Origin: a virus
Taxonomy: Duplodnaviria > Heunggongvirae > Uroviricota > Caudoviricetes
Direction: 5' to 3' (one strand)
IMG/VR virus record: IMGVR_UViG_2617270975_000008
DNA: 21,665 nucleotides
Shown here: positions 4,224 through 16,258 of the stretch, piece by piece
How the letters are laid out: each line of letters opens with the position of its first letter
How positions within the stretch are numbered: the stretch's first letter is position 1
Notes under the pieces: generated by a model
Told to the model about the DNA's origin: nothing
The model's database searches: none
The model's input: only the letters and a program-made list of their open reading frames with translations
Program-made: the position numbers and the translations under genes

Positions 4224-4439
4224 TTACTCTCCCCGCGCCGCCTTACGCCGGTCCTCTCTGATTTTGAAATACAGGTTAGTCAGATATGTCAGCAGCCCAA
4301 ACAGCAGACTCCCCAGCACGCCTATTGCCGCCCACTGAGACGGGGAAACCCTGTCCAGCAACTGCAGGAACCAGTAGCCCGTTCCCACCGCTGACGTGGT
4401 GTATGACACACCTGTTGTGATTTTTTCCATCTGGTACAT
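4224..4439 (-). CDS. S: Phage holin S (class with dual-start MYQMEK motif)
   Basis: [71 protein letters not shown] matches Stx-phage holin as recalled; two hydrophobic segments and charged C-tail. The 97-aa track ORF is an upstream extension. Confidence 0.85.
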
Positions 4440-4473
4440 ACCCCGTCTCCCGTTATCCGGAAGCTGACAACAA

Positions 4474-4503
4474 TAAAAAAAGCCACCAGTTAAGTACTGA
4501 TGG
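4474..4503 (-). terminator. Intrinsic terminator between nanS-p and S (hairpin gccaucag/cugguggc followed by U-run on minus-strand RNA)
   Basis: Plus strand aaaaaaagccaccagttaagtactgatggc; 8-bp stem with one G-U pair, A-run on plus strand gives U-tract on minus transcript. Confidence 0.5.
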
Positions 4504-4589
4504 CTCTGATAACTCATGCAGGCATCTCAGACGACCCACTGACACTACCGGTGAGTTTAACGATACCTTCCATTTGACTGGCTCACTTT

Positions 4590-6458
4590 TTATGATGATG
4601 CCGGTGCATTTATCTCCAGCACCAGACTTTCTATCTCAACGCCATACGCTGCATTTTTGGTAATATCCGTCAGCGTCAGCGCATTCAGCCCCAGTGTCAG
4701 ACTGTCTTTTATGACCTGGAATGCCGGGCCAGCCACTCCATTCAGTTTCGGAGTAACCGTGGCACTGCCGGCGGTGAACACCAGCTCCAGCGTCTGCCAG
4801 TCGTTACTGTAATTCCCGAACTCGCCCAACTTTGTGTTTCCGGCTTTCTTGTGATGCATCAGATTCAGTTTGCCGTCTGTGGTCTGGGTGAAGAACGACA
4901 TCAGGAACGGGTTACCAGTCCCGGTCATCGCCACGACGTCAGGTAACGCTACATCGGTATACAGATAAATTCCCAGACCGAACTGGTTGTTGGTCAGTGC
5001 GCCTGACAGTCGAAACTTACAGCTCAGTCTGCCACCCCGTGTCAGCAGGGAGACTGCGTCATCCACCGGATGCATCAGGGACCAGGTTTTATTGCTCTGC
5101 TTGGTAACCTTAAACACACCATCTTCCAGCGCAACACTGCCGCCGGTGATGGTCCAGCCCTGCGCAGCAGCCTCTCCGGCTGTCGGCAGCAGGGAGATTG
5201 TGCGAACGGACGTATCTGCAGACGGACCCGATGGCGTGTCGCCGCCGGGCGAGGGTTTGATTTCCGGTGCCTTACCACTGATGAAGGCTGAGGTGCGCCC
5301 GGCTACGTTCAGAATAGCAGTTGCCATACGATCGGGAATAATGCCACGACGCGCCCATGAGCTGAAATGCGTCGGGCGATTTGATGATACCCAGTTTTTG
5401 TTCGTTCGGGATGCCGAACCGTAATAACCAGACCCGGCAATATCAGGATCTTCTGACGGGTTGTTTGTCGGTGTATTAACTCCGCTACCATCGGTCATAA
5501 AGGGAACAAAATAAATCTGCTGGGATTCTTTACCTTTATATGCACCATATACCACTTCATATTGCGTACCGTGTTCTTGTTTCCACGCGTATGTCGTGTC
5601 GCCACAAATCCAGGGGACTGATGCCGGACTTCCACCGTGACACTGCGCTGCCAGCCCGGCAAGGTCAGCACGGAACTGCTGTACCATTGCAAGAAATGCT
5701 GCTGGCTGCTGGGCGTAACTGGCATTCGTCATATCGAATTCCCCCTGCATCCAGCATATCGCCAGCAAAACGTTTTTCGGGTTTTTCTGCAATGCTGCCT
5801 TCGTGCGGAAAAGCAGATCCTGATATAACGGCTTACCCACTCCCCAGCGAGCCGAATCCTGACTGGCCCCCGTGGACTCGCTGAATGTCCCCTCCGTGCC
5901 CTGGGTGAATGCCGAACCACCACGACAGCATGGTACCAGCAGGATCCCCGCATTATTAGGGATATACGGAAGCAGTTTTTTGGCAATATGTAAGCCCTGG
6001 CCGACACAGCCGTACTGCCCTTTGCTCAGGTCAGCCCGGGGATGGTTAATCGTACTCATATCCTGAACATCATGCAGACAATGGTCAGCAGGAATGATGT
6101 CGTTAAATACGCATACTTCACCACCGGGAGTCACTGTGTTACGACGGGCCAGTTGCTTAATGCGCGGATGGGGCGCATCGTATGAATCCGGAAGCGGAAG
6201 CCCTTCACCGTAAGCCATGGCATTGGACTGCCCGGCCAGTACGATGACGTAGTACCACTCCGGCTCAGTTGCACCACTGACGACCACATCACCTTCTGCT
6301 GCAATCGCCTGCATCAGGGTATAAGGGGTTATGGCCACCGGACTACCAAACGGCTGCCAGCCCTCTTTCAGTTTATGTGTCAGCTTTTCCGCAAGATCTG
6401 ACGGCGACGCCGCCCTGACAACATCATAGTGTTTAAATGCCATGGTTCTTTCCACCAT
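4590..6458 (-). CDS. nanS-p: NanS-p-like sialate O-acetylesterase (N-terminal DUF1737-like region, SASA/SGNH esterase domain, C-terminal carbohydrate-binding-like region)
   Basis: 622 aa; GQSN catalytic-serine motif (VIVLAGQSNAMAYG); position immediately upstream of holin S as in Stx phages. Confidence 0.7.
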   Translation of the reverse strand: MVERTMAFKHYDVVRAASPSDLAEKLTHKLKEGWQPFGSPVAITPYTLMQAIAAEGDVVVSGATEPEWYYVIVLAGQSNAMAYGEGLPLPDSYDAPHPRIKQLARRNTVTPGGEVCVFNDIIPADHCLHDVQDMSTINHPRADLSKGQYGCVGQGLHIAKKLLPYIPNNAGILLVPCCRGGSAFTQGTEGTFSESTGASQDSARWGVGKPLYQDLLFRTKAALQKNPKNVLLAICWMQGEFDMTNASYAQQPAAFLAMVQQFRADLAGLAAQCHGGSPASVPWICGDTTYAWKQEHGTQYEVVYGAYKGKESQQIYFVPFMTDGSGVNTPTNNPSEDPDIAGSGYYGSASRTNKNWVSSNRPTHFSSWARRGIIPDRMATAILNVAGRTSAFISGKAPEIKPSPGGDTPSGPSADTSVRTISLLPTAGEAAAQGWTITGGSVALEDGVFKVTKQSNKTWSLMHPVDDAVSLLTRGGRLSCKFRLSGALTNNQFGLGIYLYTDVALPDVVAMTGTGNPFLMSFFTQTTDGKLNLMHHKKAGNTKLGEFGNYSNDWQTLELVFTAGSATVTPKLNGVAGPAFQVIKDSLTLGLNALTLTDITKNAAYGVEIESLVLEINAPASS

Positions 6459-7039: not shown

Positions 7040-7074
7040 GGAGTTTACTCACATCTGACAAAATCAATATAAAC

Positions 7075-7096
7075 AGCCCCTCCGGAGAGGGGCTGG
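7075..7096 (-). terminator. Stem-loop (cccctc cgga gagggg core) with U-rich tail on minus-strand RNA; candidate terminator
   Basis: Plus strand cagcccctccggagaggggctg preceded by aaaatcaatataaa, giving a T-rich tail after the hairpin on the minus strand. Confidence 0.4.
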
Positions 7097-7486
7097 AGAG
7101 TGGCGCTATGTGCCATTGCATGGTGCCGGGTGCCTCCCGGTGAATTCAGTACCAGCACCTGAATCCGCGATTATCCCATATACCTACTCGCTGATTGCCC
7201 CTCCGCACAGGGGGATTCACCATGCCAGTTTCTTTTAACAAACTCCCCGCAAACCAGACAACAGTCAACCGCCTGAATTGTGAAGTATTTAAAAATTTCT
7301 CCCGCTAACTGATACCCGGCTAACAGTCTGGCGTTTTCTTTTTCAGCAACGGGAAAGCAGCAACCACCACACCCGCCACCAGCACACCGTCAGCCAGCAC
7401 TGACATTATCCGGCTGCTGCAATGCCATTCACAAAAACAGTAAGCAATCACTTTTTACCGTAACCGGTGATAATCCAGATATGTAT

Positions 7487-7950: not shown

Positions 7951-8027
7951 TGGCGCGCTGTACTGGATTCGAACCAGTGACCGATTGCTTAGAAGGCAAT
8001 TGCTCTGTCCGGCTGAGCTAACAACGC
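7951..8027 (-). tRNA. argO: tRNA-Arg (anticodon UCU)
   Basis: Manual cloverleaf: acceptor GCGTTGT/ACAGCGC, anticodon stem ATTGC/GCAAT, loop CTTCTAA, T-loop TTCGAAT, CCA end. Confidence 0.85.
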
Positions 8028-8040
8028 ATGATGCAGATAA

Positions 8041-8117
8041 TGGACCGCCATCGGGGACTTGAACCCCGCGCAGCCAGCTTCGAAGGCTGGCGCTCTATCC
8101 CGATGAGCTAATGGCGG
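8041..8117 (-). tRNA. argN: tRNA-Arg (anticodon UCG)
   Basis: Manual cloverleaf: acceptor CCGCCAT/ATGGCGG, anticodon stem CCAGC/GCTGG, loop CTTCGAA, T-stem CGGGG/CCCCG, CCA end. Confidence 0.85.
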
Positions 8118-8124
8118 TATGTGA

Positions 8125-8200
8125 TGGTGGCCCTTGCTGGATTTGAACCAGCGACCTGGCGATTATGAGTCGCTCGCTCTCACCACTGAGCTAAAGGGCC
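8125..8200 (-). tRNA. ileZ: tRNA with CAU anticodon (Ile2 lysidine-type as in Stx-phage ileZ, or elongator Met)
   Basis: Manual cloverleaf: acceptor GGCCCTT/AAGGGCC, loop CTCATAA, T-stem GCTGG/CCAGC, CCA end; gene order Ile-Arg-Arg matches recalled Stx-phage ileZ-argN-argO. Confidence 0.8.
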
Positions 8201-8249: not shown

Positions 8250-9299
8250 TCAAACGATTAAATCCTGAACTTCCCTGACTGTCTGCTCAAAACGTCCGGT
8301 CTCCAGTTCAACGCCAATCGCACGACGCCCGAGCGCCAGTGCCGCTTTTACCGTTGAACCTGAGCCCATAAAAAAATCTGCAACCTGGTCTCCCGGACGA
8401 CTGCTTGCGCTGATTATCTGCTGCAGCATTTCTGCCGGTTTTTCGCACGGATGTTTCCCGGGATAGAACTGCACCGGTTTATGTGTCCACACATCCGTGT
8501 ACGGCACCTGCGCCGTCACACCAAAATACCGCCGCAGATGCTTATATTCACTCTGCAGCTCCACATACTGCCGGTTCAGTGACGTATACGTATCCACCAG
8601 CTGGTGGTGGGGCTTTTCCAGTTCACCGCGCTGATGTTTCTCTTCTGCCACCCGGGCAAACAGCGACTGTAATTTCAGATAATCGCTTTCGTTCGGTAGC
8701 TGCCACTGACTGGCACTGAACCAGTGCGACACCATGTTTTTCTTTCCTGTGGCATCTGCAATCTGTTTTGCCGTTATCCCCAGGGCCGCGCGCGCATCAC
8801 GAAAGTAAGAAATCAGCGGGGCCATCACATGCTGTTTCAGTGCACTGCCCTTCGCCGCATACCCGGCATCTTTCGGACGATACGGCCCCTGATAATGTTC
8901 CGCGAACAGAATGCGCTCTGTGGCGGGGAAATACGCCCGCAGGCTTTCCTTGTTGCATCCGTTCCAGCGTCCGGACGGCTTCGCCCAGATAATATGGTTC
9001 AGCACACTGAAGCGTTCACGCATCATGATTTCGATATCAGATGCCAGGCGATGACCACAGAACAGGTAAAGACTTCCGACAGGTTTCAGCACCCGCCAGA
9101 ACTGCGCCAGACACTGGTCCAGCCACTTCAGGTAATCATCGTCGCCCTTCCACTGGTTATCCCAGCCCTCAGGCTTCACTTTAAAGTACGGCGGGTCCGT
9201 GACTATCAGGTCAACAGAATTTTCGGGTAACGACCGGATAAATTCCAGGCAGTCGGCGTTGATTAACTCACAACTGGATATTTTTACAGTATTAAGCAT
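8250..9299 (-). CDS. Orphan DNA methyltransferase (beta-class N6-adenine or N4-cytosine; DPPY then FxGxG order)
   Basis: 349 aa; IVTDPPYF near N-terminus, FFMGSGSTVKAALALGRR near C-terminus; no adjacent restriction endonuclease ORF. Confidence 0.8.
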   Translation of the reverse strand: MLNTVKISSCELINADCLEFIRSLPENSVDLIVTDPPYFKVKPEGWDNQWKGDDDYLKWLDQCLAQFWRVLKPVGSLYLFCGHRLASDIEIMMRERFSVLNHIIWAKPSGRWNGCNKESLRAYFPATERILFAEHYQGPYRPKDAGYAAKGSALKQHVMAPLISYFRDARAALGITAKQIADATGKKNMVSHWFSASQWQLPNESDYLKLQSLFARVAEEKHQRGELEKPHHQLVDTYTSLNRQYVELQSEYKHLRRYFGVTAQVPYTDVWTHKPVQFYPGKHPCEKPAEMLQQIISASSRPGDQVADFFMGSGSTVKAALALGRRAIGVELETGRFEQTVREVQDLIV

Positions 9300-9391
9300 G
9301 GATCATTAAGCCTGTCTCTGATAGGCTCATTCTGCTTTTGCGCAAAGCAGTGGGCCTGAGGTGTGCTTGTGAACCCAACGCATGAGCAGAT

Positions 9392-9422
9392 GGCTGGTGG
9401 GTGCCCCTAACACCCACCAGCC
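9392..9422. repeat. Perfect 12-bp-stem palindrome (ggctggtgggtg / cacccaccagcc, 7-nt loop)
   Basis: Seen directly; no U-tract on either strand, so not a canonical intrinsic terminator. Confidence 0.6.
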
Positions 9423-9435
9423 GCCCATTTACCAC

Positions 9436-9463
9436 AAATAAAAAAGCCTTCACTGCGGAAGGC
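9436..9463 (-). terminator. Intrinsic terminator (gccttc actgcg gaaggc hairpin plus U-run on minus strand)
   Basis: Plus strand aaataaaaaagccttcactgcggaaggc; overlaps the stop of the small ORF 9450-9647. Confidence 0.55.
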
Positions 9464-9647
9464 GTCTGTAACAACCGAACTGATAGTCTGCCAGACCCGC
9501 CATAACCAGCTGGGTCAGTATTAACTGGCAGCGTTCGCGTGAAAGGTAAGTATTCTGCGCAATCTCCCCGACTGTCGCCGGGTCGTTAACGCTTAATTCA
9601 TTAAACACCACTCTGGCGGTTTCTGTCATATCCTGCTGTTTTAGCAT
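9450..9647 (-). CDS. Small hypothetical late-operon protein (65 aa from ATG; 94 aa if GTG start at 9734)
   Basis: ORF downstream of tR'; weak SD (AAGGG). Confidence 0.35.
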   Translation of the reverse strand: MLKQQDMTETARVVFNELSVNDPATVGEIAQNTYLSRERCQLILTQLVMAGLADYQFGCYRRLPQ

Positions 9648-9765: not shown

Positions 9766-9792
9766 TCATAAAAAACCCGCCAGGCGGCGGGG
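9766..9792 (-). terminator. Candidate tR' terminator downstream of pR' (cccgcc aggc ggcggg hairpin plus UUUUUU)
   Basis: Plus strand cataaaaaacccgccaggcggcgggg; strong GC stem and 6-U tract on minus-strand RNA, about 50 nt downstream of the candidate late promoter. Confidence 0.65.
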
Positions 9793-9840
9793 TGTAAAAA
9801 ATCTTCTAACGTCAGGCATAAAACGCCCATCGTTAGAGCA

Positions 9841-9868
9841 AATTTACCACAGATTCGGGAAAAATCAA
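9841..9868 (-). promoter_or_regulatory. Candidate late promoter pR' (TTGATT, 16-nt spacer, TAAATT) just after the Q stop
   Basis: Motifs on minus strand; position between Q-like gene and terminator as in lambdoid phages. Confidence 0.45.
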
Positions 9869-9873
9869 CAACA

Positions 9874-10695
9874 CTATCGCGTTACCCTCTTTAACTGCCG
9901 CTCCGCCCATGCCTCTTCAATGTCAAACCGAACCACCAACGTATCGTAAAAGCGTTTCACTGATTTTTTCCACGTATCAAGCGTGATAGCACTCGTCACT
10001 TTGCATATGGCATTAAATGCCTCCGTTGATGGCAGCCTTTCACAGCCACGACCACCACAACGCTGGCAATCTCTGATAACAGGCATACCACGTTTTACCG
10101 ACTCTTCACGATGAATGGCGACACCACGCCCACGGCAATCCTTACAGGCGGTGGAAACCTCACCCTTTCCGCCACACTCCGGACAGGCAACTTTTACCAC
10201 CTCCCTGACTTTTTTCCATTCTTCCCAGTAAGACGGATACACGCCTTTTGTGCACTTTGCCCACACTGGTGGCTTACCATCCGGATACTGGATCTTGTTT
10301 GTAAAAACCTCGCTTTCAATAAATTTTTTTCCGTGACAGCAGGGGCACTGTTTTTTGCTCGCCGCGCTACGGGCATAATCTTCAAACGCATACGAAGCCA
10401 TAATGCGCATCACTACCGGTTTTATTTCTGCCGGAAGTTTTCTCAACGCCGCCACACGATCGCACCGACTGAGTGCATAATCTGCCAGTAATTCTGTTGC
10501 CCGCGCCCTGTCATTCATACTGATGCCCATTTTCCCCAGGAACGCAGAAAACCCCATCTCAGCCCGATTCTGTGTCATGCCCTGCGCGGCCATCACATCA
10601 GTGATACTCAGCGCATCTTTTGACGTTGAGGCCGATGCATCGGTCAGGCCAGGGGATTTTGGGGAGTAGTATTTCGGTAAATCTTCCAGTTTCAT
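9874..10695 (-). CDS. Candidate late antiterminator Q (QuuQ-like by position) carrying four DnaJ-type CxxCxGxG zinc-finger repeats
   Basis: 273 aa; CPCCHGKK, CPECGGKG, CKDCRGRG, CQRCGGRG repeats; sits between rusA and the pR'/tR' signals; ATGA overlap with rusA. Family assignment is inferred, not recognised by sequence. Confidence 0.5.
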   Translation of the reverse strand: MKLEDLPKYYSPKSPGLTDASASTSKDALSITDVMAAQGMTQNRAEMGFSAFLGKMGISMNDRARATELLADYALSRCDRVAALRKLPAEIKPVVMRIMASYAFEDYARSAASKKQCPCCHGKKFIESEVFTNKIQYPDGKPPVWAKCTKGVYPSYWEEWKKVREVVKVACPECGGKGEVSTACKDCRGRGVAIHREESVKRGMPVIRDCQRCGGRGCERLPSTEAFNAICKVTSAITLDTWKKSVKRFYDTLVVRFDIEEAWAERQLKRVTR

Positions 10696-11072
10696 TTTTT
10701 GACCTGCTCTTCATGCATTATGGGGTAAATCTTCACCCCCATACGTCCACCAGATACTGGCTGACCACGAACGATATTGATTTCATCAAACTGCTCATCG
10801 TCCATTAACACTCCCGCATGCGTCAGCGCATCCAGCGGTGCTTTCAGGATATTGTCCAGGTCGCGACGACGCTTATCCGGTGGCTCTGCAATCACCTTTA
10901 TCGCCAGCCTTCCGGACAGGCTTAATTTCAGCCGCTGCTGGCGAACAATAAGCGCCACAGCCCGGCGATAACGCTTTCCCTCCTCCGAGATAAAATATGT
11001 GCTGCCACGGCGTCGCCAGTAAGTGTTCACCGTTGGCGGGTAAGGCAAAACAAATTCTATGCGTTCAGTCAT
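10692..11072 (-). CDS. rusA: Holliday-junction resolvase RusA
   Basis: 126 aa; conserved RRRDLDN motif and overall RusA pattern (YPPTVNTYWRRRG...DEQ). Confidence 0.85.
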   Translation of the reverse strand: MTERIEFVLPYPPTVNTYWRRRGSTYFISEEGKRYRRAVALIVRQQRLKLSLSGRLAIKVIAEPPDKRRRDLDNILKAPLDALTHAGVLMDDEQFDEINIVRGQPVSGGRMGVKIYPIMHEEQVKK

Positions 11073-12128
11073 TTATGCTTTCCACTTCAGAACACCCGAA
11101 TTTCTCGCGTGCATTAAAAAACGAATCAGCAACAACAGCTGGCTGCCGTGTTTTTCTTCAAAATCTTTTACCCCGGCGTGTAGTTCGCTATGGCATTTAC
11201 GGCACAGCGGAATAACAAACAAATCATCAGCCTTTGTTCCCATCCCTCCCAGTCCATGACCAATGATGTGATGCGGATCATCTGCCTGATTGCCACACGT
11301 CATGCATTTCTGCGTTTTTACCCAACGCGTGTATACAGGCATCTCTTCCCGTTGTGATTTCTGGCGCTGGAGATACTGAGCCGGTGACTCCGGATCAACG
11401 GCAATGCTGACCACCGTCTTTTCCTGTGGCGGGGTTTGCTGGTGGGCGTGAGGCAGCGGCGCAAGATTTTTTGTGCGCTGCTTCAGTATGCTGGTGGCGG
11501 TCTGCTCTCCCGGTACGATGTCGCTTTCACGGTACATTGAGCGGATTTTTTCCGCACGCAACCCCAGCGAACGACGTAATACCGCTTCCGGTAGCGCGTC
11601 CGCCACCTGATTGCGGACCGCCCACCAGGATAATTCAGCCAGCGATAATTCCCGTTCCTGCGAGCCATTCATTGCATGGCGTATGACGTCAATCATCCAT
11701 GCAGACAGGTTTTGGTGAGCAAGTTGCCCGAGTGATTCGGAGGTCTGGTCGCGCAGCTGGTTGTCGCAGTGCCAGCACAACACCATTGCGCCGGTACCAT
11801 AACGGTGAATGACGGTTTCACTGTGGTGATAATCGCCGTGTGGCCACTGGCAGGATTTAACATGGCGCAGTAACCAGTCAGACAATGCGCCAGCGCCACC
11901 AGCAGCACGAATCACTCGTTCGTCGCTGAAAAATGGCAGTAATGATTTATCCTCCGCCAGCGGCTGGCGAACGGCAGGAACGACCCCGGACGGCAGATTA
12001 CGCATGCTTTTCGGTTCCGGCTCCACCAGTACCCGGGTATTGTGGAATACCGGCATGGATTCACGGCCCGGCTTAACGATCACCAGCCCGAGTTCCGGTA
12101 CCAGAACAGGTCGAAGTAATACCCGCAC
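11073..12128 (-). CDS. ydfU: DUF968-type prophage protein (YdfU-like) with C-terminal Cys/His cluster
   Basis: 351 aa; C-terminal CMTCGNQADDPHHIIGHGLGG...CRKCHSELH; K-12 Qin-like neighbourhood (Q-like gene, rem, hokD, relE, relB as recalled). Confidence 0.5.
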   Translation of the reverse strand: MRVLLRPVLVPELGLVIVKPGRESMPVFHNTRVLVEPEPKSMRNLPSGVVPAVRQPLAEDKSLLPFFSDERVIRAAGGAGALSDWLLRHVKSCQWPHGDYHHSETVIHRYGTGAMVLCWHCDNQLRDQTSESLGQLAHQNLSAWMIDVIRHAMNGSQERELSLAELSWWAVRNQVADALPEAVLRRSLGLRAEKIRSMYRESDIVPGEQTATSILKQRTKNLAPLPHAHQQTPPQEKTVVSIAVDPESPAQYLQRQKSQREEMPVYTRWVKTQKCMTCGNQADDPHHIIGHGLGGMGTKADDLFVIPLCRKCHSELHAGVKDFEEKHGSQLLLLIRFLMHARNSGVLKWKA

Positions 12129-12574: not shown

Positions 12575-12730
12575 TTACTCCTCAGGTTCGTAAGCTGTGA
12601 AGACAGCGACCTCCGTCTGGCCGGTTCGGATTCGTACCTCGCAGAGGTCTTTCCTCGTTACCAGTGCCGTCACAATGACGGTTAAACAGATGACGATCAG
12701 GGCGATTAGCATCGCCTTTTGCTGCTTCAT
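12575..12730 (-). CDS. hokD: Hok/Gef-family membrane toxin HokD (RelF), 51 aa
   Basis: Hand translation gives MKQQKAMLIALIVICLTVIVTALVTRKDLCEVRIRTGQTEVAVFTAYEPEE; below the 60-aa track cut-off; AGGAGAAG SD. Confidence 0.9.
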   Translation of the reverse strand: MKQQKAMLIALIVICLTVIVTALVTRKDLCEVRIRTGQTEVAVFTAYEPEE

Positions 12731-12801: not shown

Positions 12802-13089
12802 TCAGAGAATGCGTTTGACCGCCTCGCTATATACTTCCGAGCGTTCTCTTTTCCCAACAGAAATCACGAAAACGACAACTTTCTCGTCTATAACCTGGTA
12901 TACAAGGCGATAGCCTGAAGACCGGAGCTTAATCTTGTAACAATCAGGCATACCACGGAGCTTGTTTGCTTCAATCCGGGGTGACTCAAGTACTTCAACC
13001 AGCTTCTTTTTCAACTGTTCACGTACCGTCGAGCCCAGCTTTCGCCATTCCTTTAGTGCCCGCTCGTCAAAATCCAGAAAATACGCCAT
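12802..13089 (-). CDS. relE: RelE mRNA interferase toxin
   Basis: 95 aa, MAYFLDFDERALKEWRKLG...; matches K-12 RelE as recalled. Confidence 0.95.
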   Translation of the reverse strand: MAYFLDFDERALKEWRKLGSTVREQLKKKLVEVLESPRIEANKLRGMPDCYKIKLRSSGYRLVYQVIDEKVVVFVISVGKRERSEVYSEAVKRIL

Positions 13090-13328
13090 CAGAGTTCATC
13101 CAGCGTCACACGTACTGGCTTAGGATTACGAAGCCGTTCTTTCACTATCTCCACAAGTTCAGCATCTTCATCACTCAGGAGTGTCTGTTTGAACGGCAAG
13201 CGTTCATTGTCAGCGATATACTCGAGCATGAGACGAAGCGCTTCAGAAGGAGTTACACCCATTTTTTCAAGCGCGGCGTAAGAACGCGCTTTAAGTTCAT
13301 CGTCAATACGCAGGTTAATGCTACCCAT
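13089..13328 (-). CDS. relB: RelB antitoxin
   Basis: 79 aa, MGSINLRIDDELKARSYAALEKMGVTPSEALRLM...; overlaps relE start. Confidence 0.95.
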   Translation of the reverse strand: MGSINLRIDDELKARSYAALEKMGVTPSEALRLMLEYIADNERLPFKQTLLSDEDAELVEIVKERLRNPKPVRVTLDEL

Positions 13329-14280: not shown

Positions 14281-16157
14281 AGTTAACATTACAAGATATA
14301 AGTAATGGACGCACTCCCAATTAGTCTATTTAAATCGCCACGAGTTTAACTGACAACCCATGATCAATTATGAATTGCAACTATTTCTGTAGTCACTTTT
14401 GTGGGGACAGTCCACAAAACTGCCAACTTCCGCTTCTTGCTCTTAGCGGACATTAGCATAGGCTATTTACCATAACGCCTCATTACGCGCACCGCCCAGA
14501 CTGACTCAGCGCGTTTCTGGCATATCCCCAGTAAAACAAGTAACAAACCACCCGAAAATGAACACCAGAAACGCGACTTAAGAATCTACCCTATGAATGG
14601 ATATGCACTCAACCGAATCGATCTTGGTTTCAATCTTTTTTATCGGGATCAGGCTTCTTTTTAGGTAACTTCGGGGGCTTAACTTGCTGATGACTTTGCG
14701 TTCGGCGCGTAAGCCAGGGATGGTCAGCTTTAGGTTTAACATAGTATTTTGAGCGTAAATCAATACGGGCATTATCCACTCGTTCATGGACACTCTTTTC
14801 ATCATCCAGTGGTATAGGCTCCGGGCCATCAACATACTTTTCCCAGCCCAGCGCTTTCCCGTCATACAGAACGTTAATTTCACCGTCAAAGTTCTCGCAT
14901 ACAGTAACAACCGAATGCCTAAGTCGATATCCCCGGCTCTCACTGCGTACCTGAAACGCACTGCTTTTGTACTGGAAAGTGAGATTTTTAGACAGAACGC
15001 GCTTCGCCTGTAGGCTGAAGATATAACCCAGTTCCTCTTCAGAATGGTGCACATCAAGATGAGCATTATCAGTAGTACGAGGCGACGTAGCGAACCGGTT
15101 GTTATAGGCTTCAATAAAGGTCGGCAACCATGCATTTGCTGTTTCAATATCACTGATATTCTGAAGCCGCATTTCTTTGACCAGCCTGTCCTGTAGTGTC
15201 TGATTGGCGCGCTCTACCCGCCCTTTTGCCTGCGGGCTGTTGGCATGGATTGGCTCGATGCCCAGTGTCTTTATCGCACGAGTGAACTGGGTCAGCTCAC
15301 CTTCCCGCTCTGGGTTATTTACCCTGAATATACTGTGTCTATCAGAGTAGAGAGCGAGCGGTACGCCATGATCATTAAGGTAACCCCGGAGGGTTTCCAT
15401 GTAAGCCCGGGTTGTTTCAGCAGGCACAAAACGCAACGCCATCAACGCACTGGTGGCATCATCAATGAAAACGATCAGTGTACATCTGGGGCCTCGATTT
15501 TCAAACCAGTCATGAGGTGAGCCATCAATCTGGATCAGTTCACCGTAAGATGGTCGTCGCATGCGGCGTTGATATATACGGGCAATTTTACGGCGGCGTT
15601 CACGCCATAACCCCTCTTCTATCATCCACTTTCTGAGAGTTTCAACGGATAAAGATAAACCGTGTATCTCGCGCAATTTTTCGCACGCAAACGTAGGTCC
15701 AAAATCAGCGTAACGGCCTTTGAGGAGTGAAATTACTGTTGCTCTGAATTCAGTAGAAAAGGAATTATTAGGACGCTTTCCACGTCGGTGGGAAACCAGA
15801 CCAGAAGGCCCTTCATTTCTATACCGTTGCACCAGACGTTTAACCTGCCGAATAGAAATGCCAATGCGTGCCGCAGCTTGTTCCTGAGTAATATGTCGAT
15901 TAATTGACTCCTGAATAATCTGAAGTCGGTGGAGTTCCTTATGACTCATCGTAACAGTCTCTTTGATCATGAAAAATCCCCCAGAGAATTGTCTGGGGAC
16001 ATTTTAGAATGGTTCAAAGGGGACATTACAGCTTGGTGTTAACACATAGCCTGCTTCTCCTTGCCTTTCGGCACGTAAGAGGCTAACCTACGTGTGTAGA
16101 GCATAGATATGGCCTCAGATTAATGTTAAGCGTCTTGCCGGACGCGTAATGTTAACT
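14281..16157 (-). mobile_element. Candidate insertion sequence carrying a single DDE (rve-type) transposase; 12-bp inverted repeats AGTTAACATTAC; family uncertain (IS481-like architecture)
   Basis: Exact 12-bp inverted match at 14281-14292 and 16146-16157 flanking the transposase; extra TAATGTTAA and TGGGGACA subterminal copies; no target-site duplication found. Confidence 0.45.
14630..15970 (-). CDS. DDE transposase (N-terminal HTH, rve integrase core; IS481-like)
   Basis: 446 aa; HTH ITQEQAAARIGISIRQVKRL; DDE triad candidates in IQIDGSPHDWF, LYSDRHSIF, KGRVERANQTLQ; basic C-tail. Confidence 0.8.
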   Translation of the reverse strand: MIKETVTMSHKELHRLQIIQESINRHITQEQAAARIGISIRQVKRLVQRYRNEGPSGLVSHRRGKRPNNSFSTEFRATVISLLKGRYADFGPTFACEKLREIHGLSLSVETLRKWMIEEGLWRERRRKIARIYQRRMRRPSYGELIQIDGSPHDWFENRGPRCTLIVFIDDATSALMALRFVPAETTRAYMETLRGYLNDHGVPLALYSDRHSIFRVNNPEREGELTQFTRAIKTLGIEPIHANSPQAKGRVERANQTLQDRLVKEMRLQNISDIETANAWLPTFIEAYNNRFATSPRTTDNAHLDVHHSEEELGYIFSLQAKRVLSKNLTFQYKSSAFQVRSESRGYRLRHSVVTVCENFDGEINVLYDGKALGWEKYVDGPEPIPLDDEKSVHERVDNARIDLRSKYYVKPKADHPWLTRRTQSHQQVKPPKLPKKKPDPDKKD

Positions 16158-16258
16158 GGGGCTTTTCTCTATCTGCCTTTTGGTGTTCATGCCTGAGACA
16201 GATAGCCTCAAGCACCCGCTGCAATTCTACTTAACTCTCCTTTTCCCGCAAACCGTTT

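Follow-up and report, generated by a model that had tools for sequence, protein, structure and literature searches.

A long-form lambda-family Q protein with four cysteine motifs as the very probable late antiterminator of a lambdoid prophage

Among the phage Q antiterminators, Q-lambda, Q21 and Q82 are represented by the Pfam families PF03589, PF06530 and PF06323, respectively (PMC9388147, PMC7171158). In free lambda Q the N-terminal segment is disordered; it refolds into a torus (nozzle) in the RNA-exit channel (PMC9388147). The arm of the protein, residues 114–152, is a zinc ribbon that contacts positions 11–13 of the Q-binding element, sigma region 4 and the beta' zinc-binding domain (PMC9388147). 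A second system for comparison is offered by phage phi80; next to Q (gp17, NC_021190 41137–41946, 269 aa), its genome record marks pR', terminators and, between -35 and -10, a Q-binding site.

The window analyzed here, a stretch of 21,665 nucleotides from a caudoviral IMG/VR record (IMGVR_UViG_2617270975_000008), contains an ORF for a 273-aa protein with the motifs CPCCHGKK (aa 117), CPECGGKG (aa 171), CKDCRGRG (aa 184) and CQRCGGRG (aa 210). The first-pass annotation had pointed out these four CxxCxGxx repeats, and they are present exactly as claimed, with the first one ending in KK instead of xG. Their number is far above chance, since at least four CxxCxG motifs occurred in 0 of 20,000 shuffles of the protein (mean 0.03). 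The reading frame ends with the stop codon TAG at 9876–9874, and its start overlaps by 4 nt with a rusA-family gene (10692..11072; Pfam PF05866, E=2.7e-17), which is itself preceded by a DUF968/HNH gene (11073..12128). Coordinates of all further features are collected in Table 1.

Table 1. Positions of the features discussed in the text, numbered from the first letter of the window.
Feature	Position (nt)	Strand	Remark
IS21-type element (IstA + IstB)	27-2329	minus	adjoins lysozyme ORF
Lysozyme, 150-aa ORF	2508-2960	minus	
DUF1327 protein		minus	downstream late region
Phage-21-type holin	4224-4517	minus	
NanS-p-type esterase	4590-6458	minus	
STnc100 sRNA	7065-7254	minus	Rfam, 132 bits, E=2.4e-29; between tRNAs and esterase gene
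tRNA-Met (CAT), tRNA-Arg (TCG), tRNA-Arg (TCT)	7951-8200	minus	
DNA methylase	8250-9299	minus	
First ORF after tR', 65 aa from ATG 9647 (94 aa from GTG 9734)	9450-9647	minus	
tR' intrinsic terminator	9770..9791	minus	stem 9791-9776 (six G-C pairs), T6 9775-9770
Sigma-dependent pause element AACGAT, then GGG (putative)	9829..9834	minus	-10-like hexamer, about +1 to +6
Late promoter pR' with putative Q-binding element	9841..9868	minus	comparison with lambda and phi80
pR' -10 TAAATT	9846-9841	minus	identical to lambda pR'
pR' 16-nt spacer TTTCCCGAATCTGTGG	9862-9847	minus	
pR' -35 TTGATT	9868-9863	minus	
Q gene, 273-aa lambda-family (PF03589) protein, long form, very probable antiterminator	9874..10695	minus	ATG start
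Q codons 181-218, lambda-type zinc-ribbon arm (predicted)	10042..10155	minus	
Knuckle 4, aa 210-217	10045-10068	minus	
Knuckle 3, aa 184-191	10123-10146	minus	
Q codons 115-180, 66-aa insertion relative to lambda Q	10156..10353	minus	global alignment
Knuckle 2, aa 171-178	10162-10185	minus	
Long beta-hairpin of the insertion, aa 125-170 (predicted)		minus	AlphaFold2
Knuckle 1, aa 117-124	10324-10347	minus	
Q codons 1-44, counterpart of the lambda Q N-terminal torus (nozzle) segment	10564..10695	minus	52% identity
51-aa Hok-like ORF (by look)	12575-12730	minus	related RefSeq prophage annotates hokD there
RelB antitoxin + ParE/RelE-family toxin pair	12802-13328	minus	inside nin-like region
Second transposase gene	14630-15970	minus	early region
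sok antitoxin RNA	16045-16217	minus	Rfam RF01794, 115 bits; early region

Searches with the protein identified a full-length lambda-type Q, which corrects the first-pass statement that it is not of lambda, 21 or 82 type. It matches the Pfam family 'Antiterm' (PF03589) in two stretches with 166.1 bits (cut-off 26.7; E=2e-49), PHROG 127 'anti-termination protein Q-like' from end to end (E=1.8e-111) and, with phmmer against the PDB, lambda Q (7ubm_Q, E=2.3e-38). In the latter alignment aa 1–113 correspond to lambda 1–113 and aa 182–273 to lambda 116–207, with segment identities of 32–52%. The similarity was probably overlooked because a 66-aa insertion splits the alignment. With the full-length AlphaFold2 model (pLDDT 80.5), Foldseek returned eight significant matches, all of them Q-lambda structures (7ubn_Q, E=4e-14), so that the predicted three-dimensional fold is that of Q-lambda. 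Membership in Q21 (PF06530) or Q82 (PF06323) was rejected, as neither family gave a Pfam match at E<=0.1.

No second Q gene was found among the 25 window ORFs scanned against Pfam; for the other 24 ORFs the thresholds were E<=0.1 (four ORFs) and E<=1e-4 (twenty ORFs), and none matched Q21 or Q82. Homology to a non-antiterminator family combined with a separate Q gene, which the first-pass annotation had named as the finding that would speak against a late regulator, was thus looked for in Pfam and among the window ORFs and did not appear. In RefSeq, a 99.5% identical locus is named 'antitermination protein' and has late genes downstream. Of 5426 complete E. coli genomes, 3339 are matched by a 1.7-kb query that extends from the end of the small downstream ORF through Q and rusA into the first bases of the DUF968 gene. 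We conclude that the gene very probably encodes the late-gene antiterminator of the prophage, a lambda-family Q of the phi80-like long form. The late-regulator role, initially proposed from gene position, is thereby supported by strong homology and by the conserved target site described below. Within the Q-lambda family the protein is nothing out of the ordinary: it has been annotated before, is covered by PF03589 and PHROG 127 and, as a routine lambdoid late regulator, is of little discovery value. The record of phage Evi (L001 4568–5617) gives the neighboring DUF968/HNH gene the label 'Phage antitermination protein Q'. This gene is without a Q-family match in the window, and the Evi label looks mis-annotated; for annotation purposes, this gene should not be taken for the antiterminator.

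Structural features shared with lambda Q (PDB 4MO1, 7UBJ–7UBN) are the torus segment, the four-helix HTH body, the Cys4 ligands of the arm and the C-terminal ...VTR, and the gene position is shared as well. The first 44 residues are the best-conserved segment, with G39 kept and V6 replaced by L6; L202 and T206 are conserved in the same way as G39. As in the free lambda protein, disorder is predicted at the N-terminus (aa 1–26, AlphaFold2). Body and arm are only 32–38% identical to lambda Q, and since the promoter spacer differs too, the DNA specificity should differ from that of lambda. In addition, lambda Q is without the insertion, which comprises two Cys knuckles and a long beta-hairpin; in the global alignment the gap falls between lambda P114 and G115.

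Phi80 Q, with which Guo & Roberts 2004 (J Bacteriol 186:3599; cited in PMC9388147) reportedly dealt, shows 39% identity to the window protein along all 273 aa and shares with it the hairpin as well as all four knuckles. It differs in its third knuckle, which is CxC (CRC) instead of CxxC. Full-length matches were also obtained to the long-form Q proteins of phages mEp237 (55%), ST104 (gp23, 42%) and Evi (97%, more exactly 96.7%). All three records annotate the gene as Q upstream of the lysis cassette, in mEp237 and ST104 directly so, and for the latter two the sequence stretches examined around the gene contain no other annotated Q.

Downstream of the gene, a late promoter, a pause site and a terminator of the prophage can now be placed in the annotation (Table 1). 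A consensus promoter scan did not flag pR', because TTGATT and TAAATT match only 8/12 consensus positions and are separated by a 16-nt spacer; the promoter was therefore identified only by comparison with lambda and phi80. The -10 hexamer TAAATT, a 6-nt interval, AACGAT-GGG and a following terminator are shared with lambda qut, where pR' reads TTGACT - 17 nt - TAAATT - TGACTC - AACGAT - GGG. AACGAT is the sigma-dependent pause element of lambda; the mechanism of pausing is described in PMC9388147. The discriminator between the -10 and AACGAT is TGCTCT in the window, and the 16-nt spacer lacks a position-by-position correspondence to that of lambda. In phi80, pR' has the sequence TTGCAT - 17 nt - TAGATT - 7 nt - AACGCT - GGG with hexamers different from those in the window, and the annotated Q site TCGCGGA compares with a TCCCGAA-like stretch here. 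Promoter and pause hexamers downstream of the ST104 gene differ from those of the window likewise. Almost the same pR' spacer is found in phage mEp237, which has a Q of only 55% identity. We infer that Q binds at this spacer element.

The terminator, which the first-pass annotation had placed at 9766–9792, is real and lies on the minus strand; the terminator scan located it 83 nt downstream of the Q stop codon on the same strand. Its distance from the start is about 45–65 nt, in comparison to about 190 nt downstream of AACGAT in lambda, whereas the phi80 terminator lies about 45–73 nt downstream and leaves a short leader as in the window. The leader RNA from AACGAT to the T-run, about 64 nt in length, is predicted to form a 5' hairpin and the terminator (-21.9 kcal/mol, z=-2.45). 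No Rfam family was assigned to it, the sole match being at chance level (E=0.49).

Conservation of the region was assessed in 28 distinct alleles from 75 loci. The block of -35, spacer and -10 is nearly invariant, with few positions changed and these in single alleles, and AACGAT-GGG is mostly conserved. Variation is greatest in the 6-nt discriminator. At the terminator, the loop differs between alleles whereas the stem is preserved; after the T-run similarity is largely lost in many alleles. The nearly unchanged promoter block stands against a synonymous divergence of Q of up to dS 0.40.

A 10-mer of the pR' spacer and -10, TGTGGTAAAT (9842–9851, minus), has a second copy at 9427–9436 (minus), 415 nt downstream of the first, with a chance expectation of 0.03. 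There the sequence reads TGTGGTAAAT-GGGCGG and equals that of pR' minus the 13 nt TTGCTCTAACGAT. The second copy follows a terminator-like hairpin (9463–9446), precedes the methylase gene and was present in 41/86 fetched loci; it may have been left behind by recombination or serve as a second regulatory site. Close to it, a perfect 12-bp hairpin without T-run, GGCTGGTGGGTG-ttagggg-CACCCACCAGCC (9391–9421, minus), is located downstream of the small ORF and upstream of the start codon of the methylase gene.

With every biochemical step taken over by homology with lambda Q (PMC9388147), the following course may be proposed for the window protein. RNA polymerase from pR' would pause after about 16 nt, when sigma70 region 2 rebinds the -10-like AACGAT. 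Q would bind the element between -35 and -10 via the HTH of its four-helix body and the zinc-ribbon arm, and dock on the sigma70-paused complex. With NusA, on which dependence is assumed by analogy, the N-terminal ~44 residues would form a torus within the RNA-exit channel and block hairpin formation. The polymerase modified in this manner would read through tR' and later terminators and reach the small ORF, the DNA methylase, the tRNAs, nanS-p and the lysis genes; without Q, only the leader RNA of about 64 nt would be made.

The genomic surroundings agree with the position of a Q-lambda gene, with a rusA/nin-like region upstream and the late operon with promoter, pause and terminator downstream. 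By analogy, the 65-aa ORF would be the first gene under Q control. This ORF gave weak winged-helix-like Pfam matches (E about 0.005–0.06) and belongs to PHROG 331, which is of unknown function. The three tRNAs lie downstream of pR' and tR' and would therefore be Q-controlled as well. A near-identical RefSeq prophage carries no more than two tRNA genes at this position, tRNA-Ile and tRNA-Arg. The downstream layout corresponds to the late region annotated in the near-identical RefSeq prophage and also resembles that of Stx-type lambdoid prophages. Upstream of Q, replication genes, toxin-antitoxin modules and another IS are found.

The prophage is probably defective. An IS21-type element adjoins the 150-aa lysozyme ORF, the early region contains a second transposase gene, and the window shows only one side of the prophage. 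For the lysozyme, a related prophage annotates a gene of 534 nt compared to the shortened ORF here. As one of the IS elements sits beside this shortened lysozyme, lysis may no longer be the outcome of the circuit. Such a setting would suit an inert remnant, a gene with an intact ORF and no regulatory action here. Selection on the gene and its spread argue against this: dN/dS is about 0.07, ranging from 0.03 to 0.16 over dS up to 0.40, and Q is under purifying selection. A remnant would likewise fit poorly with a promoter and Q-binding spacer that hardly changed while the synonymous sites of the gene diverged to that extent. The loci from IMG/VR behind the conservation and dN/dS values are 94–100% identical to the window protein. 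Furthermore, the protein is reported as 100% identical on at least 13 IMG/VR contigs, its 95%-identical cluster has 4648 member sequences, and the close relative in Evi belongs to a deposited phage genome. We therefore consider an inert remnant improbable and retain the reading as a late-gene antiterminator.

With regard to the four motifs, the zinc ligands C118/C121/C144/C147 of lambda correspond to C184/C187/C210/C213, that is, to motifs 3 and 4. Their spacing of 26 residues equals that of lambda, and the intervening sequence is closely similar. From these invariant ligand positions a Cys4 zinc ribbon is predicted in the arm. For the insertion, AlphaFold2 predicts two 12-residue strands (125–136 and 159–170) with knuckles 1 and 2 flanking them on the outside; the arrangement is the same whether the full-length protein or the arm by itself (pLDDT 70.8, moderate confidence) is modelled.

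The distribution of the cysteines was followed in an alignment of 166 sequences of 195–300 aa; besides the window protein, these comprise 161 relatives from databases and four phage Q proteins. The full set of eight motif cysteines occurs in 147/166 sequences and is invariant in 60 relatives of 55–95% identity. Across the family, knuckles 1 and 2 behave as a pair, with both present or both missing; joint absence was found in five sequences, lambda among them. The other 14/166 have incomplete cysteine patterns, and several of these look truncated. Among the relatives the spacing between motifs 1 and 2 ranges from 14 to about 63 residues, and in many of them motif 3 is CxC, not CxxC. Judged from these sequences, the eight-Cys long form is the majority of the family, and the 147 sequences probably have two zinc sites, in comparison to one in lambda Q, the single solved member.

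Most likely, the four motifs bind two zinc ions in sequential pairs, 1+2 and 3+4. This pairing is predicted from secondary structure and from the pattern of presence and absence across relatives: motifs 3+4 match the lambda site, motifs 1+2 occur jointly, and the modelled hairpin lies between 1 and 2. As a second zinc ribbon, motifs 1+2 would then clamp the base of a beta-hairpin that varies in length and is located at the body–arm elbow.

The cysteine-rich domain of DnaJ (1EXK) binds zinc in an interleaved pairing of its motifs, 1+4 and 2+3. A true DnaJ-type domain in the window protein would have the same pairing and DnaJ-like activity, meaning chaperoning, thiol chemistry or protein binding, beside or instead of antitermination. 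PF00684 does match Q (E=2.7e-6) and is precomputed for most homologs, and anti-TRAP aligns over motifs 2+3 (E=0.03). The score of 28.0 bits is, however, below the Pfam cut-off of 32.7, the DnaJ model TIGR02349 reaches 21.9 against a cut-off of 377, and neither a J domain nor a G/F region nor a DnaJ C-terminal domain was found in Q with Pfam and NCBIfam. Fold searches with the whole protein retrieved only Q-lambda, with DnaJ not above noise, and the arm model is of moderate confidence. Membership in DnaJ was rejected on account of the profile score, the missing J domain and the fold search. The pairing points in the same direction, as the solved zinc site of lambda is incompatible with 1+4 and 2+3 unless rewired, motifs 1 and 2 are acquired or lost jointly, and in the AlphaFold2 model these two stand at opposite ends of one long hairpin. 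The window module thus differs from the DnaJ domain (PF00684; 1EXK) and anti-TRAP in its sequential pairing, which is inferred, and in being embedded in a DNA- and RNAP-binding antiterminator. The first-pass term 'DnaJ-type' holds for the motif and, weakly and tentatively, for the local fold; DnaJ membership and a chaperone function are not implied. The resemblance in the motif is real but weak, and a DnaJ-like activity is very unlikely, even more so than the inert remnant.

Literature searches on DnaJ-like motifs in Q proteins gave nothing relevant. A 60%-identical homolog from Serratia quinivorans (P0033) carries the name 'chaperone protein DnaJ' in NCBI, probably because the CxxCxGxG motifs triggered a false label; such motifs can yield this label in annotation.

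For the lambda-family antiterminator, the insertion leaves one modest structural point, namely that the solved lambda protein is without a module common to most family members. The hairpin module (aa 115–180) is absent from every solved Q structure and present in most of the sequence diversity of the family. It sits where lambda residues 110–126 touch the beta' zinc-binding domain and may therefore add or alter a contact, which is speculation. That the module provides an extra contact surface at the elbow of body and arm and changes the loading of long-form Q is a tentative proposal, with the odds rather against it. If true, a different DNA footprint, a different use of sigma region 4 or the beta' zinc-binding domain, or a different NusA requirement could result, and lambda Q, the textbook model, would be a reduced outlier of its own family.

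Directly after knuckle 4, codon 218 (10042–10044, minus) encodes a further cysteine (CQRCGGRGC), at a position that is occupied by Tyr in at least 90% of the relatives and in lambda.
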